Virus record (IMG/VR): IMGVR_UViG_3300045996_000987
DNA length: 64,000 nt
Source of the DNA: a virus
Reading direction: 5' to 3' (one strand)
Made by a program: the position numbers and the translations under genes. Shown piece by piece: positions 48,446-63,610 of the stretch. Below the pieces are notes generated by a model that was not told the DNA's origin, did no database searches, and saw nothing but the letters and a program-made list of their open reading frames with translations. Positions within the stretch are counted from its first letter, which is position 1, and the number at the start of each line of letters is the position of its first letter.

Positions 48446-49800
48446 TCGCTTGCGACACTGGCGCGCATCGCTCCGAAACGATGCGGAACCTTGCTGCCGT
48501 TACTGGCCAGTAAGGACCGAACCTATCGCGCCGTGACGGTCGCCCGTCACTTGGCATGCGTTCCACAATCCCGGCCCGACGCAATCCCTTGTGTTGAGAC
48601 TGCCGGAATCACTGGCGAATTCCCCGTGTCACGCCCTGTCACGGCCCGGATTCATCGCCCGATATTCCACCGCTCTTGCTTCCCGCATACTTGGCCCCAT
48701 GGCGTCCGGCCGTCGCGACGTTTCACAACGTTGCCCGGATTGCGTCCGCCATTGCCTAGACCGCATTCCCCGCGATGCACTCGGCTCGCTCTTGCGGTCA
48801 CTCGCTCCACCCGGCGCCATTCTGGCGAACCTTCCGCCCGCAACCCGCGGGTTGCGTTTGAACCTCTGGCACCTTGCCCGTTTCCCTTCCCGCCCTTTGG
48901 GGTCCACCGTCCGGTCGCATCCTTTCGGGATTCCATCCCCGGCCCCATCGGGCACGGTGGCGGAATCCGTTTCGGCGCTCCGGCGGGGCCGCTTCCCGAT
49001 CCGGGGAAGCGGCACGCCCCATTGGCGCGGTGTGCCTTTCGGCACTATGTCAATCAGCATGTGGTCCGGGGCCGATACGTTGCGCATGCTTGCCGCTTGC
49101 CGCTTGTCGCGCGCCTATCGGAATGCCGTCCGCCATTCTGTGCCGTACCGTGCGCCACACGTTCGCTTGCCGCTTGCCGCTTGTCCGTGTGTCCTACGCA
49201 ACCCGCCCGCTTGCTCGTGCATCGGAGTTGCCGCCGGTACGTGCCGGTCTTCCTTACTGCCGGTAACGTTGCGTTACCGTATCCGACCCGCTTGTGTCGG
49301 TCGCGCCACGCGTTGCGCACCGGCCGGGTTGTCTTTTCTGCCCGCCGCTTTCCTTCCGACCCCTCCGCATAAGCCCTTTTACGAATGCGGCCATTTTCCC
49401 AAACCCCCCATTTGCACCGACTTACAGCGCTCGATTTGCCATGCGCAAAACGCGAATGCCCCCGGTTGCCCCCATCGTCCTCGAAGTAACTGAGGACATC
49501 ACGGGAGTAACCGGGGACAACGTGTAAGTACCCGAGAAGTACAGGCTTAAACTCAGTGAATCCGACGAAAACGACCCCTTACGCACCCCCTTCGCGTACG
49601 TATGGGGTAGCTCTCGATCAACTCATGGCCATCTCTTCGCGCTTCCTATATAGGAAAAGACGGGATCGACGTTGGAGTAGGTGATGGGGGCCGAAAAGGG
49701 TGCGGGGCCGCTGAGGGCAGTGGGCCGAAAGTGTCCTATACGGCGTAATCGAGAGGTATCAGGTACCGAGTACCAAGTAACCGATCCTCAAGTAACCGCT
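48446..49800. promoter_or_regulatory. Non-coding divergent control region between the leftward and rightward gene blocks
   Basis: No credible ORF (only Arg/Pro-rich noise frames). Contains GCTTGCC direct repeats, hairpin CCGCTTCCCG...CGGGGAAGCGG, AT-rich palindrome TTCCTATATAGGAA (about 49641-49654), GGGCCGAAA(A)G direct repeats and promoter-like element A at 49732-49758. Confidence 0.5.
49732..49758 (+). promoter_or_regulatory. Promoter-like element TGTCCT-N13-GAGAGGTA, followed by two CAAGTAACC copies
   Basis: tgtcct(49732-37) and gagaggta(49751-58), then accaagtaacc...tcaagtaaccgctc-GTG. Confidence 0.45.
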
Positions 49801-49801
49801 C

Positions 49802-50746
49802 GTGCAGCTACAGGTCATTCAGGGCGCAGCCGTGCGCTTCTACAGCCGCATCACCCACGAGGGTGAGCATCACGTCTGGAACAACCCGAGATCCGCGCGC
49901 ACGACGCGCTTTGCCGCGCCCCACGACGGGCGGCAGCAGTTCGGTGAGCCGTCACGCCTCGCATGGATGCTGCACCACGGCTGCGAGGTACCGGCCGAGG
50001 ACGCGATCCGCCGAACCTGCGAGCATCCGCGGTGCGTAAACCCGCTCCACCTCGAACGGCAGTCCGTGCTGCACGCCCGGCGTGTCGAGCAACTGGCCAG
50101 CGAGCTACACGAGCGCCGGCAGAGCGAGGAACGAGAGCGCGTGGCACGGGCCGAGCGCGACCGGCGGGAGGACGCTGAGATCCGCGCGCTACGGGAGCGC
50201 GTGAAGCCACCGCCCTACATGGTGCAGGCCGCGACGCCGGAGGAACTACCGGCGCGTCGGGAGTGCCGACACTGCGGAGCGGACACCGAGCGCGCAAACC
50301 TGATTCAGTCGCGATCTAGCAAGACGGGGCTCTACCGTCAGATAGCGCAGTGTCGGCCGTGCGCGCGGGCCACGAACGCCGGATGGTACCGCCGGAGTAG
50401 CCAGTCGCCCGGCGGGCTCGTGAAGCGCGTCGTCTCCTCAGCACGGAAGCGGGCGCGGGATACCGGCATGGCCTTCGATCTCACCCACGAGTTCGTCGCG
50501 GAGCTATACCGGCGGCAAGGCGGGCGCTGCGCGCTGACCGACATCGCCTTCGAGTTCAACGATTTCAGGACGGGCTGGCAGAGCCACCCACACAACCCGT
50601 CCCTCGACCGGATCGACTCGAAGGGTGGGTACACGCAGGACAACGTGCGCTTCGTCCTGCTCGTCGTGAACGTGGCCCTCCGGGACTGGGGGCTCGAAGT
50701 CGTGCTCCCGGCCCTGCGGGCACTCACGAAGCGGCAGGTTGCCTAG
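49802..50746 (+). CDS. HNH endonuclease-like protein
   Basis: HHGCEVPAEDAIRRTCEHPRCVNPLHLE (HNH_3-like) and C-terminal CALTDIAF...SLDRIDSKGGYTQDNVRFVLLVVN nuclease-like segment; GTG start 6 nt after CAAGTAACC. Confidence 0.5.
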   Translation: MQLQVIQGAAVRFYSRITHEGEHHVWNNPRSARTTRFAAPHDGRQQFGEPSRLAWMLHHGCEVPAEDAIRRTCEHPRCVNPLHLERQSVLHARRVEQLASELHERRQSEERERVARAERDRREDAEIRALRERVKPPPYMVQAATPEELPARRECRHCGADTERANLIQSRSSKTGLYRQIAQCRPCARATNAGWYRRSSQSPGGLVKRVVSSARKRARDTGMAFDLTHEFVAELYRRQGGRCALTDIAFEFNDFRTGWQSHPHNPSLDRIDSKGGYTQDNVRFVLLVVNVALRDWGLEVVLPALRALTKRQVA

Positions 50747-50815
50747 CGGGCACGTCTGGCCCTTTCGCTAGACTCGATTAGGTTTTCGCCCTACATGCCT
50801 GTCAGGGAGTAACCG

Positions 50816-51283
50816 ATGGCCGAGAAACCGGGAGTCGTACGCGAGTGGACGCCGGGGCAGTTGTTCCGCGTATCCACGACCCTCTCCACGTTCGCCGCGG
50901 GGCTCGTGTGGGGAGGGGTGGTCGATCATCTGTGGGTCCGCCTCGGGCTCGTGCTCGCGGTGATGGTCGTCGCGGGCTTGCTCGGGTGGCTGGGGCAGCG
51001 CCGGGCGAAGGAGCGGACGCGCGAGCTTGGGGATGACGAGGAGGACGTCACCATCCTCGCGATGGCCGTCTCGCCCCAGTTCATCGACCGCGTGCAGCGG
51101 CTCGGGGAGAAGGCCGCGCACGAGGGGAGGCCCACCGTCGAGCCGCCGCACCTCATCTGCGCCTCGCTCGCCTTCATGGAGTGGGCGGTAGACCGCCAGA
51201 GCGAAGGGCTGCACATCGCGGCCGTCGCGGAGCTTCCGCCGGGTGCATGGCGGCCGTCCGAGCCGCGGGAGCCATGGCAGTGA
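50816..51283 (+). CDS. Membrane protein (2 TM helices)
   Basis: GGGAGTAACCG-ATG upstream; hydrophobic helices. Confidence 0.4.
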   Translation: MAEKPGVVREWTPGQLFRVSTTLSTFAAGLVWGGVVDHLWVRLGLVLAVMVVAGLLGWLGQRRAKERTRELGDDEEDVTILAMAVSPQFIDRVQRLGEKAAHEGRPTVEPPHLICASLAFMEWAVDRQSEGLHIAAVAELPPGAWRPSEPREPWQ

Positions 51284-51465
51284 ACGACGACGAGATCCGC
51301 TACGAGGTCTACCCGCCGGCCGGCTCGGGCACCCTCTACGCCGTCATCGCGATCCACCGCGCCTCGAAGATCTACGCCGCCGCCGCCGCGGAGGACGAGG
51401 ACGAGGCCAAGGCGACCGCAGCAAAAAGGCTCCGGCTGCTTGCGCCCCCGAAAACCCCTGATTAG
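51274..51465 (+). CDS. Hypothetical small protein
   Basis: Start MAVNDDEIRY with a GGGAG RBS; overlaps the upstream gene. Confidence 0.35.
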   Translation: MAVNDDEIRYEVYPPAGSGTLYAVIAIHRASKIYAAAAAEDEDEAKATAAKRLRLLAPPKTPD

Positions 51466-51613
51466 GCTCCCCCCGCGGCAACGGATTCGGCCCTGTTGTC
51501 GATGTGGCTTTCCTCGTAGGGCGAACACCGTTGGTAGCTGGGGCGTCCACTCCTACTACCAGCGGTGTTCGTGCGGGGAGCACTGGCCCGAGTATCCTGA
51601 GCGGAGAGTAGCC

Positions 51614-51871
51614 ATGCGCGCCAGCACGCCCACCGTGCTCGTAGACCCGCGCGAGATCTACCGCCGAGAGCGGAACTCCCCCACGCGCGAGGGCTCGCAC
51701 GATCGCCTCATGGCCGAGGCCCAGCGCCTCTTCGACGCCGCGCTCGCAGACGACAAGGCGAAGCGCGAGACGCAGAAGAAGGGCGGGCGCCCGAAGATGA
51801 AGCCGTTGAACACCGAGACGCGGCGCCGGGCGAAAAAAGTTTTGGAGCGAGCGACCGATTCTGTCCTATAG
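51614..51871 (+). CDS. Hypothetical basic protein
   Basis: Start MRASTPTV with a GGAGAG RBS; the 3' end overlaps promoter-like element B. Confidence 0.35.
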   Translation: MRASTPTVLVDPREIYRRERNSPTREGSHDRLMAEAQRLFDAALADDKAKRETQKKGGRPKMKPLNTETRRRAKKVLERATDSVL

Positions 51872-51888
51872 GGCGTAATCGAGAGGTA
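51862..51888 (+). promoter_or_regulatory. Promoter-like element TGTCCT-N13-GAGAGGTA(AGGGGTGTAAC)
   Basis: tgtcct(51862-67), gagaggta(51881-88). Confidence 0.45.
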
Positions 51889-51927
51889 AGGGGTGTAACT
51901 GACCGCCACCTCACGCTGACTCCTCCG

Positions 51928-52209
51928 ATGGCTCCCACTTTCGCTGTACCGCGTACCACGAACGCCCTGCTCTGGCAGACCTTCCGGGATCTCCAAGCGG
52001 AGTACGACGATTTCTCCGGGTGGGAAGTCGTGGAGGAGCGGGCGACGGGGAAGGTGAGTATCCGTGCGTATAGCCCGACGATGGGCGCCACGGTCTACGC
52101 GTTGGTCCTCAAGTACGACGACCATCCCGACGTCTGGTGCCGCCGGCTCCGCGCGCAGTTCAAGGAGTTCGCGCAACTGGCGGACGACCTCCACCGCTCC
52201 CACAAATGA
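51928..52209 (+). CDS. Hypothetical protein
   Basis: 93-aa ORF. Confidence 0.4.
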   Translation: MAPTFAVPRTTNALLWQTFRDLQAEYDDFSGWEVVEERATGKVSIRAYSPTMGATVYALVLKYDDHPDVWCRRLRAQFKEFAQLADDLHRSHK

Positions 52210-52391
52210 CCCTCACGCAGAAGTCGGCCCTCGTCGGCCGCACCATCGCCGCCGTAGAAGAGAAGCGCGAGAACATCATCGTCCTCCGCTTCACGGACGG
52301 GTCCGAAGCGCGCATCACGGCCTACGGGCTCAACTGCGCCGACATCGGGATTGCGTGCGAGGTGCGAGAACCGGAGCCGGCTTCGGCGTGA
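52206..52391 (+). CDS. Hypothetical small protein
   Basis: ATGA-coupled start MTLTQKS. Confidence 0.35.
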   Translation: MTLTQKSALVGRTIAAVEEKRENIIVLRFTDGSEARITAYGLNCADIGIACEVREPEPASA

Positions 52392-52648
52392 TCGACGTCA
52401 ACGGGCGGATCGGGGACGCACCGCCACCGTCGATGACCCTCGCGGAGTTCTGCGCCGCGTACACGGACGAGCACCGCAGGGAGTTGCACGAAGCGCTCGA
52501 AGCGCTGTGGCGAGAACGGACAGCAAAGCTCCGCGCGAGCGGAGTCGAGAAAGAGGCCGCGGAGTATGCAGCACACCTCGCGGGGGTAACCGGCAGGCAC
52601 GCTCTCCAGTTAATCAGCGCGATCCACGGAGAAACCTACAAGTGGTGA
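52388..52648 (+). CDS. Hypothetical protein (GTG start; ATG alternative at 52433)
   Basis: GTGA coupling. Confidence 0.3.
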   Translation: MIDVNGRIGDAPPPSMTLAEFCAAYTDEHRRELHEALEALWRERTAKLRASGVEKEAAEYAAHLAGVTGRHALQLISAIHGETYKW

Positions 52649-53025
52649 CGCAAGTAACCGCCCCCGAGCCCCGCGATCTCTCCGCGTGGGCACGCCAGAA
52701 GACGAACACCGAACTCGCCAGCGCGCTCGATCTCCTCGCCCGCGGCGCCCCGCAGCAGCCGGTGTTCGAGCAACAGGTGGCCATCCTACGGGAGAGCGCC
52801 CACCGCCTGCGCGAGAGCGTCGTAGACGAGCACTTCACGCTCACGATCGTCACCCCGGATGGCAGCACCGACGTCACGGTCGGCTCGCTGGAATCCGTGG
52901 CCAACTTCGAGCGCAGCTACAGTGGCGATGGCTACGCGGTCGTCCGCGCCGGACACCGCACGCTCGGTCGCGTCCCGCTTACTCCCGACGAGCAGCAGCG
53001 GCTCCGCGCGATGAGGGCCGACTGA
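52642..53025 (+). CDS. Hypothetical protein (GTG start)
   Basis: CAAGTAACC lies at codons 4-6. Confidence 0.3.
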   Translation: MVTQVTAPEPRDLSAWARQKTNTELASALDLLARGAPQQPVFEQQVAILRESAHRLRESVVDEHFTLTIVTPDGSTDVTVGSLESVANFERSYSGDGYAVVRAGHRTLGRVPLTPDEQQRLRAMRAD

Positions 53026-53210
53026 TGCCCCGCTACCTCTTCTCGTACCAAGGACGGCCCGCCTACCTGCCGCCGCGGTTCGTGGTCATCGACGCGCCGT
53101 CGCTCGAAGAGTGCGCGCCGATCGCGGAACCCCTGCGCCTGCGGTTCGAGGGGTACGCCGATGGGAGCGCGGTCGAATACAACGCGTGGCCCGAGTTGGT
53201 CGCGCACTGA
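53025..53210 (+). CDS. Hypothetical small protein
   Basis: TGATG-coupled start MPRYLF. Confidence 0.35.
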   Translation: MPRYLFSYQGRPAYLPPRFVVIDAPSLEECAPIAEPLRLRFEGYADGSAVEYNAWPELVAH

Positions 53211-53830
53211 TGCAGCCCTGCGAGTGCATCCCCGGCCCCACGGTCGTGCCCGAGCCCGCGACGTTCGCGCTCGTGGCGATCGGCCTCCTCTTGCTCGCCG
53301 TGCTCCACAAGCGGCGACGGCGGGTAGGGCTCGGGCTTCTCGCGGTGCTCACGTTCGCCCGCCCGGCCGAGGCGCAGTGCCCGTGCCCGCCGATCGTCCC
53401 GACGACGCCGGAGCTTCCGGCGCCCGTGGCCGATACGACAGGCTCACGCAACCGTGTTCCGTGGTGGCCGTTCCTCGCGCCCTTCCTCGTGCTGCCGTTC
53501 ATCGGCGGGGACGACGACGACGCGGAGATCGGGGCCGGCGAAGGCACCAGTAGCCCGCCCGCGGCGCCGGCTGCGCCGCTTTCGTTCTCCGACTTCCACG
53601 AGCGCACAGTGGCCGGCAGCGAGCCAGAACTGACACCGAGTGCGCGCGTGTTCCGGCAGCAGATGCACGCGGTCCCATCTCCGACCGCGCCCTCCGACGT
53701 GCACGAGCGGCCTACGGAGCGCATGGGCGTCGTACCACCGAAGACGGCCACGGTGCTGCCGTTCGCTCTCATGCTCGGGCTCGCGCTGTCGAGCGCGGGG
53801 CTCGCGCTCCTACGAAGGAAGAAGGCGTAG
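53210..53830 (+). CDS. Membrane-anchored Pro-rich protein with N-terminal PEP-TM-KRRRR segment and C-terminal TM plus RRKKA
   Basis: VPEPATFALVAIGLLLLAVLHKRRRR near the N-terminus; C-terminal VLPFALMLGLALSSAGLALLRRKKA. Confidence 0.4.
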   Translation: MQPCECIPGPTVVPEPATFALVAIGLLLLAVLHKRRRRVGLGLLAVLTFARPAEAQCPCPPIVPTTPELPAPVADTTGSRNRVPWWPFLAPFLVLPFIGGDDDDAEIGAGEGTSSPPAAPAAPLSFSDFHERTVAGSEPELTPSARVFRQQMHAVPSPTAPSDVHERPTERMGVVPPKTATVLPFALMLGLALSSAGLALLRRKKA

Positions 53831-53919
53831 CACGCTGTCCCAGTTACCGCCTACCGGGAGGTAATACGTGAAAGGCACACCGCATCGGGGTGCCACAACA
53901 CGGTGCCCCGGAGGGCGGG

Positions 53920-54186
53920 ATGGCGAAGAACGCGCTGGAAAACGCGGAAGCGGTACACAACCTGCTGCGACGCTTCGAGGACTTCATCGAGGAGAAGGCG
54001 CTGCGCGCGGAGTTCGAGCGCACGCTGGATGAGGAGGAGCTAGAGCACTACCGCAATACGTTCGATCACGTCGGTGAGCCGCCCAGCGATCTCGCAGATG
54101 CGTGGGGCGAGGACTACGACGACTACGAGGACGAGGAGGAAGCGGGCGGGCTGCCAGACGGATTCCGGTACGATGACGAAGACTGA
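53920..54186 (+). CDS. Hypothetical acidic protein
   Basis: GGAGGG RBS. Confidence 0.4.
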   Translation: MAKNALENAEAVHNLLRRFEDFIEEKALRAEFERTLDEEELEHYRNTFDHVGEPPSDLADAWGEDYDDYEDEEEAGGLPDGFRYDDED

Positions 54187-54637
54187 GTACGTCGTCGGCT
54201 TCGCCTACGACTCCGTTGGTCGTGTCGTCCTCATCCGGAAGACGCGGCCCACATGGCAGGCGGGGAAGCTCAACGGCGTCGGCGGGAAGATCGAAGCGCA
54301 CGAGACGGCGAAGCAGGCGATGGCCAGAGAGTTCGAGGAAGAGACGGGCGTGCAGACGCTCTCGACCGCGTGGCGTCACGTCGGTACGATGATCGGGGCC
54401 GCGTATGTTGTGCACATCCTTGCATTCGAGAGTGACACGATTACACTCGAAGTAGCGACAACGACGGACGAGCAAGTGGTGGTGCGCGACGGCCGGCGAC
54501 TGCCGGAAGACTGCCTCCCGAACGTGCCCTACCTCGTCGGCATGGCGATGGATCGCGACCTCACCGGGGCTCGCCTCGTGTACGGCCTGCCCGAGCCGGT
54601 GACGCAAGAAGAAAGGTGGAAGATTTCGGCAGCCTGA
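54173..54637 (+). CDS. NUDIX hydrolase
   Basis: Nudix box GGKIEAHETAKQAMAREFEEETGV (GGx5Ex7REUxEExGU). Confidence 0.75.
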   Translation: MTKTEYVVGFAYDSVGRVVLIRKTRPTWQAGKLNGVGGKIEAHETAKQAMAREFEEETGVQTLSTAWRHVGTMIGAAYVVHILAFESDTITLEVATTTDEQVVVRDGRRLPEDCLPNVPYLVGMAMDRDLTGARLVYGLPEPVTQEERWKISAA

Positions 54638-54647
54638 CCCCCGATTC

Positions 54648-54674
54648 TGTCCTGTAGGCGAAAATCGAGAGGTA
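54648..54674 (+). promoter_or_regulatory. Promoter-like element TGTCCT-N13-GAGAGGTA(AGGGGTGTAAG) upstream of the tRNA cluster
   Basis: tgtcct(54648-53), gagaggta(54667-74). Confidence 0.45.
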
Positions 54675-54757
54675 AGGGGTGTAAGCGAAGCGGTTCCTCG
54701 TTCCCGGCGAAAGCGAAAACGAGGTGGTGGAGGGTGACTGGCAGCAGTCGCCCCTAG

Positions 54758-54852: not shown

Positions 54853-54865
54853 CGTGATGTGTGAT

Positions 54866-54950: not shown

Positions 54951-55024
54951 GTCCTTCTAGCTCAACTGGTTAGAGCAGCGGACTCTTAATCCGCAGGTTC
55001 TCGGTTCGATCCCGAGGGGGGACA
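54951..55024 (+). tRNA. tRNA-Lys(CTT): tRNA-Lys (anticodon CTT)
   Basis: Cloverleaf: acceptor GTCCTTC/GGGGGAC with two G-U pairs, D-arm GCTCAACTGGTTAGAGC, anticodon loop CTCTTAA, T-arm CTCGGTTCGATCCCGAG. Confidence 0.65.
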
Positions 55025-55166
55025 TAGGTACGGATGCAGTCGGGCCGCGGGAGTACAACATCGGGGGTGTGCGCAAGCACGAGTCGTTCCCCGTCAACGC
55101 TCCGGGTTCCGTAACTTCCGTACCGCTCGATCGAGTGGAAAGACCGGCGAAGACCCGGTACGGACA

Positions 55167-55200
55167 GGCTCCGTTCGTCTAGTCAGATAGGACGCCACTC
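55167..55200 (+). pseudogene. Diverged duplicate of the 5' half of tRNA-Glu (no 3' partner)
   Basis: GGCTCCGTTCGTCTAGTCAGATAGGACGCC shares CCGTTCGTCTA with tRNA-Glu at 55427; no complementary acceptor or T-arm follows. Confidence 0.3.
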
Positions 55201-55426
55201 ACGGCAGGTGTTGGTAGCAGGTGCGGGGCTCGCTTCATGGCGAAGCAATGCGAGGCCACAACCGTCCCGAGGCCCTAAGTTCCCACTGGTAGCTCAGTGG
55301 GCGACCTCCTTCTTAGGGTGTTCCCTCTACTCTTGGAGCGCGAACTAGGTCGCCACTGTGGTCGTAAGCGGGTAGCCTCGGAGTGTCTTGTCTTGGACAG
55401 CCCGCTCGTCGCAGGTGTCAGGTGAA

Positions 55427-55498
55427 GGCCCGTTCGTCTATCGGTTAGGACGCTACCCTTTCAAGGTGGAGAGACGAGTTCGACTCTCGTACGGGCTA
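55427..55498 (+). tRNA. tRNA-Glu(TTC): tRNA-Glu (anticodon TTC)
   Basis: Acceptor GGCCCGT/ACGGGCT, D-arm GTCTATCGGTTAGGAC, anticodon loop CTTTCAA, T-arm ACGAGTTCGACTCTCGT. Confidence 0.7.
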
Positions 55499-55938
55499 CT
55501 GCTCTTCGCTGTAACTTGAAGGGACTTAGGGAAGTGTAGGACCAGTACCGGGGCCGACATGGCATCGACTGGTATGTGACACGGAACGTCGAAGTGCGCC
55601 GAGGGACTTCATCTCGCCTCGTAAATCACGGGTGGACAAAACACAAATGCCAGCGATAACCTCGCGGCAGCGGATCGGCTTCTGGCCGAAGTTCTTGGCG
55701 GCGTAGCCGTCGAGAACCCCCACTTCGCAGCGGTCTAACGACCCTCGTAGCGGGTGACGCAACCCTGACGGACTCCGATACAGTCAGGGGCCTTGCATCG
55801 GGCGACACCGGGAGAGACTGGGGGTCTTGTCAGTGTCCCTTACCACGACTGACGACGGTTGGCTCGCTCGCCACGGGACCGTAACACCCGAAGGAGCTAC
55901 GCGCGCTGAACAAGACTGAACGACGATCATATCAACAC

Positions 55939-55963
55939 GGGAGTTCGATTCTCCCCGGCTCCA
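55939..55963 (+). ncRNA. Orphan tRNA 3'-end-like sequence (T-arm, acceptor 3' strand, CCA) ending a roughly 430-nt non-coding stretch
   Basis: GGGAGTTCGATTCTCCCCGGCTCCA; no matching 5' acceptor or D-arm upstream. Confidence 0.3.
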
Positions 55964-56181
55964 CTTGCTCCACGAGGTCACCATGCAGGTCATGTATCCA
56001 CGGACGCGAGTAACCGTACCGACAATGGAAGACGTGAAGAAGACGTGGGCGAGCCTACGTCATCGTGTGAAGTACGCGGTGAGCAAGACCTACCGTGAGC
56101 AGTTGGAACGGGAACGCGCAGAGCAGCGCGTGCGGGCCATGATGTACCTGCGGACGCCACCCGTCGTATAGCTCGCGGTAC

Positions 56182-56267
56182 GCCGGGGTATCCAAGAGGC
56201 CAAAGGGTGCTGACTGTAAATCAGCCGGGCGCCACGCCCTTCGTAGGTTCGACCCCTACCCCCGGCA
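56182..56267 (+). tRNA. tRNA-Tyr(GTA): tRNA-Tyr (anticodon GTA)
   Basis: Acceptor GCCGGGG/CCCCGGC, anticodon loop CTGTAAA, long variable arm, T-arm GTAGGTTCGACCCCTAC. Confidence 0.7.
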
Positions 56268-56274
56268 CTGTGCT

Positions 56275-56358
56275 GCTCGGATGGCGAAACTGGTAAACGC
56301 GCCAGACTTAGGATCTGGTGGGCGAAAGCCCCTGTCGGTTCGAGTCCGACTCTGAGCA
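56275..56358 (+). tRNA. tRNA-Leu(TAG): tRNA-Leu (anticodon TAG)
   Basis: Acceptor GCTCGGA/TCTGAGC, anticodon loop CTTAGGA, long variable arm, T-arm GTCGGTTCGAGTCCGAC. Confidence 0.7.
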
Positions 56359-56525
56359 TGTTGTCGCGTTTCCCCTGACAGGACGGGCGGTTAGTCATCA
56401 ACCAATATTGTCTGTCGCCGGTAGTTCGGAAATGCTCTCGTTTGATGGGGCGCGCTTGTAGAGGTGCTTAAACGCCGAAACCCCCAAAGGCACCCGTAGA
56501 TGAGCGACGGGGCCGACTACCAATG

Positions 56526-57010: not shown

Positions 57011-57037
57011 CTGTCCTGTAACCGAAAATCGAGAGGT
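57011..57037 (+). promoter_or_regulatory. Promoter-like element TGTCCT-N13-GAGAGGTA, then GTGTAACC, CAACTAACC and CAAGTAATCC before the ATG
   Basis: tgtcct(57011-16), gagaggta(57030-37). Confidence 0.45.
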
Positions 57038-57082
57038 AAGACGTGTAACCCAACTAACCCAAGTAATCCGGAGATCCCCGCC

Positions 57083-57475
57083 ATGCGTAAGCCTGTGGAT
57101 TTTGCTGACCACCCGGTCCCTGTGCGCGGCCTCTATCGCGCCGTGTGCAAGCACGTCGTGGACGGCGACACGTTCGACTTCCTGATCGACCTCGGCTTCA
57201 ACCAGTACGCCTACGCGACCGTCCGACTGAACGGCGTGAACACGCCGGAGATTTTCAGCGGTACGGAGCGCGAGTGGGGCAAGAAGGTGAAGACGTACGT
57301 CGAGGGCCTGCTGCTCAACCGGCAGGTGGAGCTTCGCACGAAGCCCGACGCTATCACCTTCGGGCGCTACGTGGCCGATGTCCGCCTCTACGTCGAAGTG
57401 GAGCCCGGCGTCACGCAGAGCTTCGACCTCGCGAATCATCTTCTCACCCTCGACATGGCGGTAGCGGCGCGATGA
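57083..57475 (+). CDS. Thermonuclease (staphylococcal/micrococcal nuclease-like)
   Basis: VVDGDTFDFLIDLG...VRLNGVNTPE SNase active-site pattern. Confidence 0.65.
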   Translation: MRKPVDFADHPVPVRGLYRAVCKHVVDGDTFDFLIDLGFNQYAYATVRLNGVNTPEIFSGTEREWGKKVKTYVEGLLLNRQVELRTKPDAITFGRYVADVRLYVEVEPGVTQSFDLANHLLTLDMAVAAR

Positions 57476-57714
57476 CCCTCAAGACCGTCCTGCTCAAGAA
57501 CAGCCACATCGCCGTCGTGCTCATGGAGACGAAGACGGCGGGTGCGCGCATCCTACGCACGAAACGGTGGAAGGAGCGCGACGCGGAGTACGACCGGGCC
57601 AAGCGCGCCCTCACCCCGCTCGTCGGCTTCGAGGCCAGCAAACCCGAGCTACGCTCGATGGAAGCGTGGGACGTCGTGATCGGTCAGGTGGCCCTCAACC
57701 TCGGGCTCCGCTGA
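57472..57714 (+). CDS. Hypothetical protein
   Basis: ATGA-coupled start. Confidence 0.4.
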   Translation: MTLKTVLLKNSHIAVVLMETKTAGARILRTKRWKERDAEYDRAKRALTPLVGFEASKPELRSMEAWDVVIGQVALNLGLR

Positions 57715-57716
57715 CG

Positions 57717-58505
57717 ATGCACCTCCTTCTCATCGACTTCGCGAACCTCTGCTGCCGGCTCTACTACCGGAAGGGCTGCGCGACGCCCGCCGACGTCGTG
57801 CCCCACGTCCGTCACGCCCTGCTCGGCGCCGTGCGGGAGTGGGCGGCCACGCACCTGATCGCCGCGCTCGACGCCCCGCGGTGCTTCCGCTACGACCTCT
57901 ACCCGGAGTATAAGGGACATCGCGCCAGCAAGGACGGGCCGACTGCGCAGGAGATCTGCGCGGCCGTCATCCCGCACCTCGACGCGTGGGGCGTGCAGAC
58001 GGCATACGCCGATGACTTCGAGGCCGACGACGTGATCGCCACGCTCGTGAGCCGTGCAGCGGAGCGCGGGACCGCCGTCTCGATCCTCTCCACCGATCGC
58101 GACCTCTTCGCCCTCGTGAATGACGACCACCGCGTGTGCGTGCTCTACCCGGAGCACGGCAAGGAAGTTGTCATCCGAGAGGCGGATGTCTTGGCCCGTC
58201 TCGGCGTCTGGCCACAGCAGGTGGTGACATGGAAGCTCCTCGCCGGAGACAAGAGCGACAACATTCCGAAGGTCGGCCTCGACAAGATGACGGCCGCCGG
58301 GGTGCGGCGGTACGGCTTCACACCTGAGCGCGCCGCCGAGATCCTGACTCGACCGCTCGGGTATCGCGACCTCTCCGAGAAGGAGCAGGCGTGGGTAGAC
58401 GCGTCGCGCGACCAATGTGCCACGCTTCGTCTCGTGGTCGCGCTTCGGCCGGACGCGCCGGTCGCCGTCGATGCCTACCGCTGCGCCGTGTCGTATCTGC
58501 GATGA
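57717..58505 (+). CDS. 5'-3' exonuclease / flap endonuclease (Pol I N-terminal-domain-like)
   Basis: LLLIDFANLCCRLYY, YPEYKGHR, FEADDVIATL, LSTDRDLFAL and LLAGDKSDNIPKV motifs. Confidence 0.8.
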   Translation: MHLLLIDFANLCCRLYYRKGCATPADVVPHVRHALLGAVREWAATHLIAALDAPRCFRYDLYPEYKGHRASKDGPTAQEICAAVIPHLDAWGVQTAYADDFEADDVIATLVSRAAERGTAVSILSTDRDLFALVNDDHRVCVLYPEHGKEVVIREADVLARLGVWPQQVVTWKLLAGDKSDNIPKVGLDKMTAAGVRRYGFTPERAAEILTRPLGYRDLSEKEQAWVDASRDQCATLRLVVALRPDAPVAVDAYRCAVSYLR

Positions 58506-58735
58506 CCCAGTATCGCCTCCTCTGCCAGAACTTCCGCCGCTTCGTGCGCGTCAAGGTGCAACGGAACGTGGGCGGGCACTGGTCTACGACCGGCATCGAG
58601 CAGATGCACCTGCTCTTCTTCGCCGGCTGGCGCATGGAACTACAGCAATGGGCCGACGAGCGGGGCATCACGCTCGTGTGGACCGGCAACGCCGTCACCG
58701 CCAAGGTGCGTCTCCCCTCATGCGCCCGACCATGA
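58502..58735 (+). CDS. Hypothetical protein
   Basis: ATGA-coupled. Confidence 0.35.
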   Translation: MTQYRLLCQNFRRFVRVKVQRNVGGHWSTTGIEQMHLLFFAGWRMELQQWADERGITLVWTGNAVTAKVRLPSCARP

Positions 58736-59010
58736 TCCAGCGACTCCTGATGGCCCTGACCGCCGACTGGGTGCCTCGCGCCGAGTACCGCTACATCGTC
58801 TCCACCGCGACCGCTACGCACGGTACCGTGTGGCTCCAGCAGCGGCAGGTAGATCTCGCGAACAGCCGGCGGGAGCGGTGGGTACAGGTCGGATACACTT
58901 TCGAGATCTATCGACGCCGCGGGCTCCGCGTCGGTCAAGCGCTCTCGGTCGCGGAGGTCGTCAGCGGGCGTCCACAGCCGCTCGGAAGATTCGCCTACCG
59001 CCACGACTGA
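58732..59010 (+). CDS. Hypothetical protein
   Basis: ATGA-coupled start MIQRLL. Confidence 0.35.
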   Translation: MIQRLLMALTADWVPRAEYRYIVSTATATHGTVWLQQRQVDLANSRRERWVQVGYTFEIYRRRGLRVGQALSVAEVVSGRPQPLGRFAYRHD

Positions 59011-59013
59011 TTC

Positions 59014-59040
59014 TGTCCTGTAGCGCGTAATCGAGAGGTA
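59014..59040 (+). promoter_or_regulatory. Promoter-like element TGTCCT-N13-GAGAGGTA
   Basis: tgtcct(59014-19), gagaggta(59033-40). Confidence 0.45.
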
Positions 59041-59121
59041 GTGGATGTAACTGAGCGGCACGATGCCGACCGGGCCGGACGCCCCCGCGATGGCGCCCTA
59101 CAAGTAACCCGACCGAGTAAT

Positions 59122-59943
59122 ATGCGACGCTTCTTCCCCCTCCTTGCCGTGCTGGCGCTCGGCGCCTGCACCTCCATCGACTCGACCGATCACTGCGTCG
59201 AGACGCGCTACGGCGACGTCGTGACGCAGAAGATGAAGCCGGGACTCACGACGACGTTCACGACGGCGACGGAGTGCTTCCCGCTCACGCAGCAGACGTG
59301 GCCCAGCGGCAAGGGTGAAGACGGTCAGGCATCCGCGGAGAAGGTCAGCTTCATCACGAAGGACTCCGTGAGCATCGAGAACGCGGAGATCGCGCTGCTC
59401 TGGAAGTACACGGATGCAGGGCAGGCGTTCGGCATCAAGCGCACGCACGACGCCGTGCTCGTGGAACTCTCCAACGCCGTGCGCTCCGGTGTGCGGGACT
59501 TTGGCGCGACGCTGACCCTGCCGATGCTGCTTGGCGCGGAGCGGGCCAATCTCGATGAGGCGGCACGGAAGGCGATTCAGGACAAGATGAGCCCCTTCGT
59601 CCAGATCGAGAAGGTGTACCTGCGCAGCATGGAGCCGCCGGCCAACATCAAGGCGCTGTGGTCGTCCGCGATGGCCCAGCAGGGCGAGCAGACGAAGGCG
59701 CGGGCGCAGTTCGTCACCGACTCCCTCAACGCTCGGCGCAACGTGATGCTGGCCGAAGCTCGTGCGAAGGAGACGGAGTTGAAGAACCGCGCTCTCGCCG
59801 CGAATCCGGAAGTGCTCAAGCTGGAGCGCGACCGCTCGCTGGCTGAGGCGAGCGCGAAGCTCCTCTCCTCGTGCACGAGCAACTGCTTCATCGGCGGTGA
59901 CGCGTTCACGCGCAGCCTCCTCCAGACGGTGCCGCGTCAGTGA
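59122..59943 (+). CDS. Lipoprotein with SPFH/band-7-like domain and coiled-coil
   Basis: LLAVLALGAC lipobox; LLGAERANLDEAARKAIQDKMSPFVQIEKVYLRSMEPP then a coiled-coil; CAAGTAACCCGACCGAGTAAT-ATG upstream. Confidence 0.45.
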   Translation: MRRFFPLLAVLALGACTSIDSTDHCVETRYGDVVTQKMKPGLTTTFTTATECFPLTQQTWPSGKGEDGQASAEKVSFITKDSVSIENAEIALLWKYTDAGQAFGIKRTHDAVLVELSNAVRSGVRDFGATLTLPMLLGAERANLDEAARKAIQDKMSPFVQIEKVYLRSMEPPANIKALWSSAMAQQGEQTKARAQFVTDSLNARRNVMLAEARAKETELKNRALAANPEVLKLERDRSLAEASAKLLSSCTSNCFIGGDAFTRSLLQTVPRQ

Positions 59944-60089
59944 TCCCGGCCGCTCTCGTCATCATCGGTGGCGTCGTCCTGCTGATCGCCCGCGACATCG
60001 CCCACTCCGTGCGGAACCGCGCGCTCGAAGCGCGGCTCGCGAAGATCGAGGCGGCGCTAGAGACGGCCTGCCTGCTCTCCAGCAAGTAG
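59940..60089 (+). CDS. Small membrane protein (49 aa, GTG start overlapping the upstream stop)
   Basis: VIPAALVIIGGVVLLIARDIA helix then an amphipathic tail; below the ORF-track cutoff. Confidence 0.3.
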   Translation: MIPAALVIIGGVVLLIARDIAHSVRNRALEARLAKIEAALETACLLSSK

Positions 60090-60096
60090 TAACTCC

Positions 60097-60357
60097 GTGA
60101 GTCACCGCGTGGCCCCTTCGGGGGCCGCGCCCCACGTCCTCCCGACCATGCTCAAGCTCCGCATCCTCTTCTGGTTGCTCGTCGGTTGGTACGCCCACCG
60201 GCAGTGTCGTCTCGGGCAGTACCTCGTGAACGTCGCCCCGACCGGGGCCGATCTCTGGAACATCCGCGACATGGACTGGGCCTTCCGGCTGCGCATGGTA
60301 GCCCTCTACGGCCTCGACTGGGAGTTTCCCGCCAAGGAGCACGATTATGCCCACTGA
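60097..60357 (+). CDS. Hypothetical protein
   Basis: CAAGTAGTAACTCC-GTG; possible internal ATG at 60148. Confidence 0.35.
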   Translation: MSHRVAPSGAAPHVLPTMLKLRILFWLLVGWYAHRQCRLGQYLVNVAPTGADLWNIRDMDWAFRLRMVALYGLDWEFPAKEHDYAH

Positions 60358-60835
60358 GCGCGCTGTGAAGGCCCGGAAGACGTACAACGGCGAGATCCCG
60401 TTCGACCCGTTCACGGGCAACATGATGAGCTATCCGATGCCGCAGTGGGCCTACCGGGATCTCGACACCGGAGAAGTCTTCCCCCGCTCGCAGTTCGTGG
60501 CCGGGCGGAACGCCGAGTCGGTGTGGTTCGAGCCGGCGTACGAGTTCAACCGGATCTTCCGCGCTACGCTCCAGATCACCGGCTTCGGGCGGGGGCGTAG
60601 CTCCGCGGTGGTCTACCTCCGCGTGCTGCACATCCTCGATCCGCTCGGGGGTATCGAGAAGGGCGCACAGTTCTCCATGTTCCTCTCCGACTTCACGGAG
60701 ATGGTGATGGGTGCACGGAGCATCGACGGCGGGGTGCTCGATGGTTGTTGGACGTTCTGCAAGGTGGGCGCGAACTACGGCCTGCGCTGGCTCGGGGAGT
60801 GGGACGACCCGATCGCGCACGAGGACGACGAATGA
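60347..60835 (+). CDS. Hypothetical protein
   Basis: 162-aa ORF. Confidence 0.4.
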   Translation: MPTERAVKARKTYNGEIPFDPFTGNMMSYPMPQWAYRDLDTGEVFPRSQFVAGRNAESVWFEPAYEFNRIFRATLQITGFGRGRSSAVVYLRVLHILDPLGGIEKGAQFSMFLSDFTEMVMGARSIDGGVLDGCWTFCKVGANYGLRWLGEWDDPIAHEDDE

Positions 60836-61077
60836 GCCGGGGCCTCGTTCGTGATCCCCTCGCGCGCTCCATCGAGCGAGTCGTGAAGAAAGGGTGCGAC
60901 GCTCACCTCGGAGGCCGGCAGTGCCGGTGCGGTAGCCGCAATGGCGTCACCCGCAAGACGGCGCAGATCGCCCACTCCGTAGTGACGTATAGCGAGTGCA
61001 ACGACTGCAAGACGTGGCTGATGGACTCTCCCAACCGTCACCGTATGGCGGACGCGCAGTACCGGACGAACCGATGA
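60832..61077 (+). CDS. Zinc-finger protein
   Basis: CRCGS...CNDC motif; ATGA-coupled. Confidence 0.35.
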   Translation: MSRGLVRDPLARSIERVVKKGCDAHLGGRQCRCGSRNGVTRKTAQIAHSVVTYSECNDCKTWLMDSPNRHRMADAQYRTNR

Positions 61078-61367
61078 GCGCTGTCCCGGCATACGCCGCG
61101 CTCCGGGGCATCGCGGTGCTCGACTCCTACGGGCAGACGATCCTCCCCAACGCCAAAGTCGCGTTCAACCAGAGCGGCTTCCTCCGGCTCGGCCGGGTGA
61201 AGACGGCGCGCTGCATGAGTGAGGAGAAGCACCATTGGCGGGGCGTCTGGCGGACGTGGCTCGTGGAGATCGAGGTGATCGAGCCGAACGGGGGCACGCT
61301 GCACACCGCGAAGGTGCGCAACCCGGACGGGATTATCGTGCTCCCGGAGTTCCCGATCCTCCCATGA
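61074..61367 (+). CDS. Hypothetical protein
   Basis: ATGA-coupled. Confidence 0.35.
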   Translation: MSAVPAYAALRGIAVLDSYGQTILPNAKVAFNQSGFLRLGRVKTARCMSEEKHHWRGVWRTWLVEIEVIEPNGGTLHTAKVRNPDGIIVLPEFPILP

Positions 61368-61540
61368 TGGTCGATCTCCGTGACCTCGTGGCCGCGCTCG
61401 TGCTCCTCGCCTTCGGCGGCGCCGGCTCGGCCGTTCTCGCGAACGCGGTGTGGCCGAGCATCCCGGAGGTGCCGCACGTCGTGCTGCGCGTCATCATCGT
61501 CCTGCTCGGCGTGTGGGCGCTCCGCTGGATCGCTCGGTGA
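61364..61540 (+). CDS. Small membrane protein (2 TM helices)
   Basis: Hydrophobic helices; ATGA-coupled. Confidence 0.35.
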   Translation: MMVDLRDLVAALVLLAFGGAGSAVLANAVWPSIPEVPHVVLRVIIVLLGVWALRWIAR

Positions 61541-61553
61541 GTCTGGACACGAC

Positions 61554-61590
61554 GAACGCCCCGCGGTGACTCGCGGGGCGTTCCGTTCGT
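61554..61590. terminator. Bidirectional terminator hairpin
   Basis: GAACGCCCCGCG...CGCGGGGCGTTC 12-bp stem between convergent genes. Confidence 0.55.
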
Positions 61591-61598
61591 TCGGGAGC

Positions 61599-62384
61599 TT
61601 AGAAGGTCGTCCCGAAATCGACCTCGATCAACAGGCCCCTCGGCAGCCCGGCAAGGTCGAGGAGATCCGCGAGCAGCCCGTGCATCTCAGTCATCGGGGC
61701 GAAGAACATCGTCTCGCCCTGCATGCGGCGGGTGTTGTACGTGGTCACCATCGTCCGGAGCCGCTGCCGCTGATCGTGGCCCGTGATCTTCGCGCTCGCT
61801 CGCTTGGTCGGAGGCGGGCTCACCGTCCCGACACCAACGACGGCGGTCCCGTTCTGCGCCGCCTTCCTCGCGCGGAGCTTGATGGCGTTCGGCGTCATGG
61901 AGAGCGGCTTGCCCGTTCGCGGGGAGCGAGGCACCTGCCCGTCGCTGCGCGGCGCCCTCCCCGTGGGATGGGCACCCGGACGGGGCTTCCCGGCTTGCCC
62001 CGCTGCCCGGCGTATCCGTTCGAGTTGGTCCTGTGCGAAGGCGTACTCGTAGCCGCCCGCCAGCAACTCGGCCCGGATGTCCTCCTGCGACCGCCGAAGG
62101 GCCTTCGCGAGCGCCTTCACGAGCGGCGGGACGAACGGGTGGTTCACCGGCAGTTCGTAGTTCCGCTCCATCCGCATGAGCGAGCTATCGGACACCCCGC
62201 TCGCGTCCTGCATGGCGCGGAAGCTCAGGCCCGCCTCCGTGCGCAACCGTGCGAGGTTCTTGCTGACGGCCGCCGGGGGCCGCTGGTAGAACGAGCCCTC
62301 CGCGACACTCCGGAGCGACGGAGGGAGGGCCGTGTTCGAGGCCGGCGGGGTGATCTCCCCGACGACAGGGGCGGAAGCAGCCAT
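61599..62384 (-). CDS. XRE-family helix-turn-helix transcriptional regulator with C-terminal domain
   Basis: SKNLARLRTEAGLSFRAMQDASGVSDSSLMRMERN matches the HTH_XRE pattern. Confidence 0.6.
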   Translation of the reverse strand: MAASAPVVGEITPPASNTALPPSLRSVAEGSFYQRPPAAVSKNLARLRTEAGLSFRAMQDASGVSDSSLMRMERNYELPVNHPFVPPLVKALAKALRRSQEDIRAELLAGGYEYAFAQDQLERIRRAAGQAGKPRPGAHPTGRAPRSDGQVPRSPRTGKPLSMTPNAIKLRARKAAQNGTAVVGVGTVSPPPTKRASAKITGHDQRQRLRTMVTTYNTRRMQGETMFFAPMTEMHGLLADLLDLAGLPRGLLIEVDFGTTF

Positions 62385-62402
62385 GGTGCGGATCTCCTCG
62401 GG

Positions 62403-62894
62403 TTAGGACACGGCGGCGAGCAGTTCGCTCTCGATCGCGTGCCGGAGGTCGTTGATCTGGCCCTTCACCGGGCGCATCTCCTTGAGCGAGCCGTAGCGGT
62501 CGAACCAGCGGCTCAGTTCCCGCAACGCCTGCTCGACCACCTGCTCGCGGAGCCTCGACTGCCGCATGGCCGTCTGGAGGGGGACGTACGCCTTCCGGCT
62601 GTGCGGCGTCGGCTGCACGTAGACGAATGCCTTCGTGGCTGTCTTGCGGGCGCCCTTGACGAGCACCAACTGGGACATGACCGAGCCGGTCTGCTTCGTC
62701 CGGTAGAGGTCGGCCGCCTTGGCGTCGTCGCGCTCGATCAGCGGGTGGAGGGGACTCCGGCGATCGGCCGCCTCAGCCAAGATCGTTTCCTTCGTCACGC
62801 CGCCGTGTTCCGCCGCCAACGCTTCGAGGCGGTCACCGACCGCTTGGGCGTCGGCGGTGGGGAACAGGCTTTCGTTTCGCCATGCGTAGCGCAC
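62403..62894 (-). CDS. Hypothetical protein (GTG start)
   Basis: CAAGTATCC...GGAGACGGTC-GTG context; upstream part of the track ORF rejected. Confidence 0.35.
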   Translation of the reverse strand: MRYAWRNESLFPTADAQAVGDRLEALAAEHGGVTKETILAEAADRRSPLHPLIERDDAKAADLYRTKQTGSVMSQLVLVKGARKTATKAFVYVQPTPHSRKAYVPLQTAMRQSRLREQVVEQALRELSRWFDRYGSLKEMRPVKGQINDLRHAIESELLAAVS

Positions 62895-63042
62895 GACCGT
62901 CTCCGAGTTACAGGGTCCGTGGGATACTTGTGGACAAACGCCGTAAGTGGCTGCCCGCAAGGATGATACCGAGGCGTCCCGGACGGCGCCACCCTCTGCC
63001 CCCGTGGGGTGCCCCGGAGGGTGTAACTGGTGGCCATGGGAC

Positions 63043-63069
63043 TGTCCTGTCCGGGCCGATCGGGAGGTA
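63043..63069 (+). promoter_or_regulatory. Promoter-like element TGTCCT-N13-GGGAGGTA (no ORF downstream)
   Basis: tgtcct(63043-48), gggaggta(63062-69). Confidence 0.4.
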
Positions 63070-63183
63070 ATGGGGCTATTGGGCAAACCGCAGATAGCCC
63101 GGAGGTATTGGCACTCCAGCCCGGCGGGCAAATAACACCTAGAGGTTAAAAATGCACAATTCAACCTAGAGGTTATGGCGGTC

Positions 63184-63210
63184 TGTCCTATCCGGGGAAA
63201 TCGGGAGGTA
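63184..63210 (+). promoter_or_regulatory. Promoter-like element TGTCCT-N13-GGGAGGTA (no ORF downstream)
   Basis: tgtcct(63184-89), gggaggta(63203-10). Confidence 0.4.
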
Positions 63211-63289
63211 CTGCGTGGAGGACTCCACGAACGGGATTCAGTGCCGAAAGCTGGCGCCGCGCTTTTTTCTGCGCAGGCGACGGTTGTTG

Positions 63290-63560
63290 TGGGAGTGCGC
63301 CCGCGCGCCCCTACTACGAGTTACTGAGTTACTTCAACGTCGAAGTAGCTCGTTTGCCAGAGTTACTTGAGAGTGGCAATAAGAGAGTTACTTCGACGTA
63401 ACGGTCTAACTCAGACGTAACACTGAACTCACACGTAAATCACAAGGAACTCGAAGAGCAAAGAGTTACGAGAGAGTTCTAACAACATACGCTCACGTAA
63501 CAGAGAACAGATACTCTTCACGTTACGTCAACGAGAGCGTTGAGTAGCGTTGAGCCTGTG
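63290..63560. repeat. AT-rich island with at least 10 GTAAC/GTTAC-core repeats (GAGTTACT, ACGTAAC, CACGTTAC)
   Basis: About 45% G+C against about 67% overall; copies include AGAGTTACTTG, which is CAAGTAACTCT on the other strand. Confidence 0.6.
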
Positions 63561-63582
63561 GAGAAGACGGGTGACGGGATTC

Positions 63583-63610
63583 TGTCCTACGGGGCAGGGG
63601 ACGAGAGGTA
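63583..63610 (+). promoter_or_regulatory. Promoter-like element TGTCCT-N14-GAGAGGTA(AGGGGCGTAACC)
   Basis: tgtcct(63583-88), gagaggta(63603-10); 27 nt upstream of ATG 63637. Confidence 0.45.

Follow-up and report, generated by a model that had tools for sequence, protein, structure and literature searches.

A repeated two-block intergenic element as a probable lineage-specific promoter of an uncultivated high-GC phage

We analysed a 64,000-nucleotide (nt) stretch of viral DNA (IMG/VR record IMGVR_UViG_3300045996_000987, hereafter the window) and found a short element, TGTCCT-N13/14-GRGAGGTA, repeated in its intergenic regions. The element is quite probably a lineage-specific promoter of an uncultivated high-GC phage, which would be read by a non-housekeeping sigma-type factor on bacterial multi-subunit RNA polymerase. 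It exists in a copy number far above chance, is strict in position and orientation, and is kept in relatives of the phage. The kind of element is familiar, but its consensus sequence is new. That it acts as a promoter, where transcription starts, to which temporal class it belongs and which factor reads it are what we infer from these patterns in the DNA.

Copies of the element in the window

The pattern TGTCCT-N13/14-GRGAGGTA gave 13 exact matches, compared with 0.01 expected from 100 dinucleotide shuffles, and one near copy reads TGTCCC instead of TGTCCT. A two-block position-weight scan returned exactly 14 sites of at least 26 bits and none in shuffled sequence. The first-pass annotation had reported at least 11 copies. 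All 11 that it listed are present, nine of them at the exact coordinate (57011 should be 57012 and 14600 should be 14599), but it had overlooked the exact copies at 12000(-) and 19162(-). The spacing of 13-14 nt that it gave between TGTCCT and the second block holds in all exact copies. Residence inside coding sequence, which it had named as evidence against a promoter, was not seen for any copy in the window: all 14 lie within the 20 % of the window called intergenic (gene call based on GC content at the third codon position), and all 14 are oriented like the downstream gene or tRNA/transfer-messenger RNA (tmRNA) cluster. By chance, such positions would have a probability of ~0.2^14 and such orientations one of 2^-14. 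The distance from the end of the motif to real gene starts is 26 to about 280 nt.

The extended form of the motif is (GATTC)TGTCCT..(A)ATCGRGAGGTA-N5-TG, where GATTC often stands before TGTCCT. Information is concentrated in the TGTCCT and (A)ATCGRGAGGTA blocks, and the spacer of 13 or 14 nt between them holds little. After GGTA follow five variable bases and then, in 11 of the 13 exact copies, T at +6 and G. Five plus-strand copies share a long form, ...GAGAGGTAAGGGGTGTAAC.

Five copies lie on the minus strand. The copy at 2596-2623(-), with 14-nt spacing, is 58 nt away from the start codon (2537) of the downstream ribonucleotide reductase gene and is abutted upstream by a GC hairpin (2629-2652). 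The copy at 4910-4937(-) stands directly after a terminator (4948-4980) and upstream of a weakly SpoVG-like gene (ATG at 4851). The exact copy at 12000-12026(-), adjoined by a hairpin at 12027-12057, precedes the gene 11549-11941, and the copy at 14599-14625(-), which also has a hairpin upstream (14628-14668), precedes the serine recombinase gene 12068-14344. The fifth, 19162-19188(-), is exact and lies 46 nt upstream of the gene 18555-19115.

The first copy of the rightward block, 49732-49758(+), is located upstream of an HNH/endonuclease VII-like gene (49802-50746). The long-form copy (GATTC...GAGAGGTAAGGGGTGTAAC) at 51862-51888(+) lies 39 nt upstream of the gene 51928-52209, and the near copy at 53836-53863(+), with 14-nt spacing and 28 bits, upstream of the NUDIX gene 54074-54637. 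Three further long-form copies precede, respectively, the tRNA-Lys/tRNA-Glu/tmRNA/tRNA-Tyr/tRNA-Leu cluster at 54951-56359 (copy 54648-54674(+)), an SNase-like gene at 57083-57475 followed by the 5'-3' exonuclease gene (57012-57038(+), 44 nt upstream), and an SPFH/Band-7 lipoprotein gene with its likely true start at ~59122 (59014-59040(+)). The copy at 63043-63069(+) lies in a divergent intergenic region, the copy at 63184-63210(+) is followed by a terminator-like site (63241-63257) and then by a GTAAC/GTTAC repeat array, and the last copy, 63583-63610(+), of the long form and with 14-nt spacing, is placed 26 nt upstream of an open reading frame (ORF) starting at 63637. The site TGTCCC-N15-GGAGGTA at 44990(-) was not counted, as we judged it to be the ribosome-binding site of the gene 44574-44984 beside a chance TGTCCC.

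The copies had been described as typically following terminators. Hairpins do stand before 2596, 4910, 12000 and 14599 and, less clearly, before 49732, but the nine other copies have none. Folding z-scores of the hairpins before these four to five of the 14 copies are -2.4 to -5.2, with the weaker one before 49732. Of these hairpins, a terminator scan recognises only the canonical terminator 4948-4980, and thus not the hairpin 14628-14668 beside copy 14599. Structured 5' leaders were rejected as a general feature: the 45 nt from the presumed start have a mean z of -0.09 and an energy no lower than that of random 45-mers.

The copies 63043 and 63184 had also been proposed to lack a downstream ORF and to drive small RNAs. 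There is indeed no convincing ORF directly downstream of 63043, but the small-RNA idea is weak; the ~55-nt RNA expected after 63184 folds no better than shuffles (z +1.6) and has no Rfam match. The two copies may be tandem promoters upstream of the repeat array and of the gene starting at 63637.

Conservation in relatives

Relatives of the window were reached only via homologues of the exonuclease and of a 399-amino-acid (aa) protein discussed below. They are metagenomic contigs (L101, L102, L103/L104, L139 and L145) that are syntenic with the window at 35-55 % protein identity. A relaxed core, TGTCCY-N16-18-GGTA, has 14 hits in the window (shuffle mean 0.36), seven in L102 (0.12), four in L101 (0.17), one in L103 (0.06), one in L139 (0.16) and one in L145, and 0 matches in 41 kb of unrelated high-GC loci. 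A pattern scan of IMG/VR gave single chance-level matches only and no contig with clustered copies, and a literature search on the hexamer TGTCCT returned nothing relevant.

Several copies occupy orthologous positions. The element is found before the ribonucleotide reductase gene in the window (2596), L102 (15541) and L145 (8175), before the SpoVG-like gene in the window (4910) and L102 (13634, after a hairpin), and before the recombinase gene in the window (14599) and L102 (6221). The L102 homologue of the gene 18555-19115 has the -10 block ACAGGTAGGGGGTGTA upstream. Terminator-like hairpins stand directly before several copies in the window as well as in the relatives.

The flanks of the core drift from GAGAGGTAA in the window to CAGGTAG in L101 and L102 and GGGTAG in L145, while TGTCCY and GGTA remain constant; the core kept by the relatives reads TGTCCY-N17/18-GGTA. 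In 12 of 14 copies of the relatives, counted by eye, a T is found five bases after GGTA, as TG or TA; L101 has T-A where the window has T-G at +6/+7. As intergenic DNA is unlikely to be alignable at 35-55 % protein identity, the retention of the core points to a conserved recognition factor. The pattern argues for a factor that would contact TGTCCY, GGTA and the downstream T, which we see as its best explanation, and conservation in the relatives is the strongest evidence for reading the element as a promoter.

Proposed promoter anatomy

The intergenic position, the orientation, the two-block layout and the conservation in relatives all support the interpretation as a promoter, which the first-pass annotation had put forward together with a choice of enzymes. 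Among these, a single-subunit phage polymerase agrees with the anatomy far less well than a multi-subunit RNA polymerase directed by a sigma factor. Judging from the alignment of copies and from general bacterial promoter geometry, TGTCCT, often with GATTC in front, would be the -35 block, and (A)ATCGRG-AGGTA, around -12 to -7, an extended -10 block. The putative +1 is the conserved purine of the T-G step, 7 nt after GGTA, and the preceding T would be the usual pyrimidine at -1. With this start, GAGGTA would lie at -12 to -7 and TGTCCT 15-16 nt upstream of it.

The copies would head transcription units for ribonucleotide reductase, recombinase, 5'-3' exonuclease, NUDIX, nuclease and the tRNA/tmRNA cluster. 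No copy occurs in a block of small unknown genes at 32.9-48.5 kb, where a different, palindromic motif is found. The DNA-metabolism and tRNA units downstream of the element, together with its absence from this block, suggest a separate 'middle'-like temporal class. The recognition factor is probably phage-encoded, and the best candidate would be the 399-aa sigma-like orphan encoded at 8622-9821(-).

The candidate recognition factor

The candidate cognate factor (8622-9821, minus strand) is an all-helical two-domain orphan with a predicted sigma-like fold. In its AlphaFold model, a confident N-terminal domain is joined through a disordered linker of ~60 residues to a helical C-terminal part. 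Re-modelling of residues 1-153 gave a predicted local distance difference test score (pLDDT) of 90 and a predicted template modelling score (pTM) of 0.80. The best matches of this part are sigma factors (WhiG 5.6, SigE N-terminal domain 5.5), with terpene synthases at 5.4, and Foldseek found nothing significant. In a full HMMER search the family grew to at least 61 clusters, known from metagenomes only, and 62 members were aligned. By eye, the invariant residues are G59, F68, G73, W78 W79 and R273-L279 'RDMVRKL'. They seem to resemble sigma region 2.1-2.3 (…GL…F…G…WWI…) and the end of region 4.2 (…ERI…RKL), which we take as a lead, not a test.

The gene for the homologue of the 399-aa protein has a motif copy immediately upstream in L101 and in L103/L104. 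This is the autoregulatory layout that is common for alternative sigma factors. In L145, the sigma-like gene is preceded (1160-1280) by a sigma-70-like TTGACC-N18-TAGACT and not by the phage motif, which would agree with the host enzyme expressing the factor.

Several observations weigh against a sigma-read promoter and against this candidate. The TGTCCT -35 block matches no sigma consensus known to us, and the 15-16 nt from GTCCTR to AGGTA are slightly more than in sigma-B-type spacing. The spacer is partly conserved among the long-form copies and AGTTACGGCC recurs in the spacers of three copies, both of which are unusual for a pure sigma promoter, and the 3' block doubles as a perfect Shine-Dalgarno sequence with NTG after it. 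Pfam searches recognised no sigma or RNA polymerase domain in window proteins of at least 95 aa, PHROGs searches with ten larger or unannotated window proteins added none, and the genes called in the relatives' loci (~70 kb) have none listed. Regarding the candidate family itself, 0 of 62 members match the Sigma70 Pfam models at E <=1, the profile of the 62 members found no sigma factor among PDB sequences, and hhalign of the family with E. coli sigma-70 and sigma-E gave a probability of <1 %. Finally, the sigma-like gene of the window has only a degenerate copy upstream (GTTCCT-N17-GGTA).

Taking the predicted fold together with these points, we rate the chance that the 399-aa protein is a sigma factor as somewhat below even. 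More tentative is the wider proposal that its family may be an unrecognised, sequence-orphan class of phage sigma factors, cognate to TGTCCT-N15/16-AGGTA and partly autoregulated, with the promoter as one tier of a three-part code; we hold this as a minority view. If true, the three parts would be the promoter, the start-codon palindrome TTACTG-n-CAGTAA in a separate gene block, and GTAAC half-sites in leaders and in an origin-like array.

Immediately downstream of the sigma-like gene in all relatives lies the gene for another conserved orphan, in the window at 7216-8529(-). This protein of 437 aa is 55-71 % identical in the relatives and has no Pfam or PHROG match. By eye, it contains a nuclease-like D..D/E-x-K motif and a C-terminal cysteine cluster.

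Alternative explanations

The best surviving alternative is that the element, situated beside promoters, is bound by a phage transcription regulator, as an activator, repressor or anti-terminator loading site, and is not itself a core promoter. Such a site would agree with the partly conserved spacer of the long-form copies (RTAGG.CG.AAATCG), with the CGATT/AATCG inverted repeat that brackets TGTCCT in four copies and with the presence of AGTTACGGCC in the spacer of copies 2596, 4910 and 53836 and also in L145, and the phage does use other protein-site-like repeats (GTAAC half-sites and palindromes). However, the motif is asymmetric and strictly orientation-locked, and no separate recognisable promoter stands alongside, sigma-70-like sites being at or below chance in the regions scanned. 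The two blocks have -35/-10 spacing with a conserved pyrimidine-purine step 6-7 nt downstream, and it is the blocks, not the spacer, that are kept across relatives. We therefore regard a regulator site as unlikely.

Somewhat less probable again is a promoter of a sigma-independent phage polymerase, of the T7-like single-subunit or the phiKZ/AR9-like multi-subunit kind, with its gene beyond the window. The genome is partial and there are no structural genes in the 64 kb, so the polymerase gene could lie elsewhere, and the long-form copies are conserved over ~45 nt, including positions past the presumed start. On the other hand, the information is split into two blocks with 13 or 14 nt spacing, unlike in a contiguous T7-type promoter, and no RNA polymerase domain was found in the window or is listed in ~70 kb of the relatives' DNA.

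We consider it improbable to a still greater degree that the element works in the RNA, as a translation signal in which GGAGGT/GAGGT would be a Shine-Dalgarno sequence followed, after 4 nt, by a GTG/ATG/TTG that opens a leader mini-ORF or a start-stop pair. Equally improbable is the role that such a signal would have, namely to load or park ribosomes ahead of the real gene. Eleven of the 14 copies have an NTG at +5 to +7 relative to GGTA, a start-stop pair (GTG-TAA or ATG-TAA) is present in four long-form ones, and the mini-ORF ends in frame at the TAA of the first GTAAY in four of four cases (2596, 4910, 12000 and 14599; p ~0.01, post hoc). Yet across all GTAAY motifs the TAA shows no preference for the frame of upstream ORFs (31, 19 and 29 cases per frame), and relatives read CAGGTA or CGGTA, which are not Shine-Dalgarno-like. 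L101 has TA, not TG, and L102 has ATG-TAT without a stop, but TGTCCT and GGTA are still kept. A translation signal would also leave the TGTCCT at a fixed distance upstream unexplained, and copy 54648 precedes RNA genes, not a coding gene.

That the copies are functionless remnants of a small mobile or duplicated intergenic cassette is hardly credible, for although the long-form copies are nearly identical over ~45 nt and several accompany hairpins, recalling T4 promoter-stem-loop cassettes, only the two blocks at fixed geometry persist between lineages of 35-55 % identity, at orthologous positions, every copy is oriented with its gene, and no IMG/VR contig carries clustered copies.

Other repeated sequences in the window

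Apart from the putative promoter, the window contains a palindrome, [CG]TTACTG-n0-2-CAGTAA[GC], with 23 strict copies compared with 0.04 in shuffles, within 32908-48513 (e.g. 43083-43096, 45967-45979 and 47508-47521). All of them belong to the minus-strand block of small unknown genes without the promoter motif. Copies occupy the gap from a stop codon to the following start, and several stop 4-8 nt short of an ATG that has no Shine-Dalgarno sequence. The palindrome could serve as an operator, as a signal for RNA processing or as a translation signal in a second class of genes. A 63-nt repeat unit that includes the palindrome is present at 46248 and 46684 (436 nt apart), with a partial third unit near 47142 (region 46248-47202).

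The second type of repeat is a strand-specific leader motif, RGTAACY, located 1-30 nt before start codons (e.g. 2551-2557(-), 4852-4859(-), 45939-45945(-) and 49776-49797(+)). CAAGTAAC occurs 23 times compared with 0.39 expected, and GTAACC was counted 32 times in intergenic sense orientation, once in intergenic antisense orientation and six times in coding sequence (51 kb). In the relatives, GTAACT stands directly before ATG. From its sequence, RGTAACY looks like a half-site of the palindrome. The 1.3-kb non-coding divergent region at 48446-49700 contains GCTTGCCGCTTGCCGCTTGTC twice.

The spacer sequence AGTTAC(G/C)GCC.., with a reversed GTAAC inside, is found at 2602-2615(-), 4916-4929(-) and 53842-53855(+). 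In L145 (~6195-6215) it is kept upstream of the SpoVG-like homologue although TGTCCT has been lost. It may be an operator inside the promoter.

At 63300-63540, between the promoter copies 63184 and 63583, lies a lower-GC array of GAGTTAC/CGTAAC repeats. The ORF that begins at 63637 shares 43 % identity with L139 11784-12464, and the layout in L139 (array at ~11500-11700) comprises a motif copy, a GTAAC/GTTAC array, a second TGTCCT site that is not a full copy, the homologous gene and a primase-helicase. Because this layout recurs in L139, the copies around the array may belong to a replication-control or origin region. The array itself may be an iteron/origin or an operator array.

Gene content and origin of the window

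The GC content of the window is 65 %. Third-position GC indicates minus-strand genes from 1 to ~48.5 kb and plus-strand genes from ~49.8 kb, with the exception of two minus-strand genes at 61.6-63.2 kb in the rightward part. The identifiable products include ribonucleotide reductase, serine recombinase, RuvB-like ATPase, DNA polymerase III beta clamp, NUDIX hydrolase, SNase-like nuclease, 5'-3' exonuclease, an SPFH protein, a helix-turn-helix protein, tyrosine integrase, a DpdA-like transglycosylase, an HNH/endonuclease VII-like protein, thioredoxin, dCMP deaminase and the weakly SpoVG-like protein. No capsid, portal, terminase or tail genes were recognised within the 64-kb window, which we thus take for the non-structural part of a larger phage genome.

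The plus-strand RNA cluster (54951-56359) consists of tRNA-Lys, tRNA-Glu, tRNA-Tyr, tRNA-Leu and a tmRNA (55550-55966); these four tRNAs and the tmRNA are supported by both ARAGORN and Rfam, and the cluster is apparently driven by the promoter copy 54648. A fifth tRNA, tRNA-Glu at 45047-45134 on the minus strand, is an ARAGORN call only. The relative L139 has a comparable set of tRNAs and tmRNA.

The gene at 32927-33688(-) encodes a DpdA-like homologue of queuine/archaeosine tRNA-ribosyltransferases (phrog_1279, E 9e-83), and this suggests 7-deazaguanine modification of the phage DNA. A polymerase that reads a G-rich -10 block would then have to tolerate the modification.

No DNA match to the window was found among 50,697 phage records, and a distant search matched tRNAs only; two conserved window proteins likewise had no tblastn match in these records. 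When collections of viruses, genomes and metagenomes were scanned with the RuvB-like family, the sigma-like family and the 5'-3' exonuclease as protein queries, nothing or only relatives of 25-30 % identity came up, and no prophage. An identical copy of the 399-aa protein is listed from a JGI metagenome contig of 66,269 bp.

Significance

Phage-specific promoters and their factors reveal how phage genes are scheduled and are useful as orthogonal expression parts. The motif and the 399-aa protein make up a testable promoter-factor pair in a soil phage lineage without any cultured member. Should the protein be the factor, the sigma family would extend to proteins beyond recognition by sequence methods, and unrecognised specificity factors may be hidden among other helical 'orphan' phage proteins. 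If instead a host sigma factor reads the motif, the consensus could help in host assignment.

Comparison with known promoter classes

The first-pass annotation had set the element apart from both sigma-70 and sigma-54 promoters, and we agree. Sigma-70 promoters read TTGACA-N16-18-TATAAT, the -10 hexamer having A as its second and T as its sixth base. No such consensus site falls on any copy, the window-wide counts are 2 and 0 compared with 1.9 expected, and GAGGTA has only the A at -11 in common with the sigma-70 -10 element. Sigma-54 promoters read TGGCAC-N5-TTGC at -24/-12, with GG and GC 10 nt apart, and are excluded because the aligned copies have no conserved GG-N10-GC. Promoters of extracytoplasmic function (ECF) sigma factors have a -35 element with AAC (GGAAC/GTAAC) and a -10 element with CGT. 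Neither block of the motif fits, and the GTAAC motifs of the window sit in leaders beside start codons. T7-type promoters are contiguous conserved blocks of ~20 bp, from -17 to +6, with no variable low-information spacer. The element is not T7-like, since its information is in two blocks and its spacer varies in length.

The phage sigma factors SPO1 gp28 and gp33/34 and T4 gp55 set promoter classes for which factor and timing are experimentally known. Like these, the window has repeated phage-specific consensus elements that would divide the genome into temporal classes, but the consensus and the hosts are different, and here factor and timing are proposed from DNA sequence. T4-type promoter-stem-loop cassettes use host sigma-70 early promoters. 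Their order of a hairpin or terminator followed by a promoter between genes is seen at copies 2596, 4910, 12000 and 14599; a hairpin is, however, present at only four to five of the 14 copies, and there is no sign of mobility. Start-associated sequences of Cluster K mycobacteriophages lie directly upstream of real start codons and include the ribosome-binding site. The motif, which ends 26 to ~280 nt before starts, is not of this type; the GTAAC motif is more alike.

The middle and late promoters of phiEco32 carry AATGTA centred at -11.5 and are read by gp36, a divergent phage sigma factor of ~200 aa that is a recognisable distant sigma homologue (PMC12276001). Their consensus is unrelated to the TGTCCT-N15/16-AGGTA found here, and the candidate 399-aa protein differs from gp36 in having no detectable sequence similarity to sigma factors.

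In its -10 region the element seems to resemble promoters of group-3 sigma factors of the sigma-B/sigma-F type, GTTTAA-N12-14-GGGTAT (PMC8346170). In Synechocystis, SigF promoters have TAGGC at -32 and GGTAA at -12, and SigF drives its own gene (PMC2532724). In common with these, the element is bipartite, with a G-rich GGTA/GGGTA -10 and not TATAAT, and with a presumed start a few nt downstream. It differs in the -35 block, which is TGTCCT and not GTTT/TAGGC, and in the spacer, which is 15-16 nt long where group-3 promoters have 12-15 nt, and 1-2 nt above the sigma-B consensus. Neither the window nor the relatives' loci yielded a group-3 sigma gene. As the -35 block and the spacing do not match, we do not file the motif as group-3. 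Most window copies read AGGTAA/G, where the first G of GGGTA is usually A, and the L145 copy has GGGTA. This apparent resemblance of the -10 block to group-3 sigma promoters is a lead only, not a test, with GGTA as the shared core.

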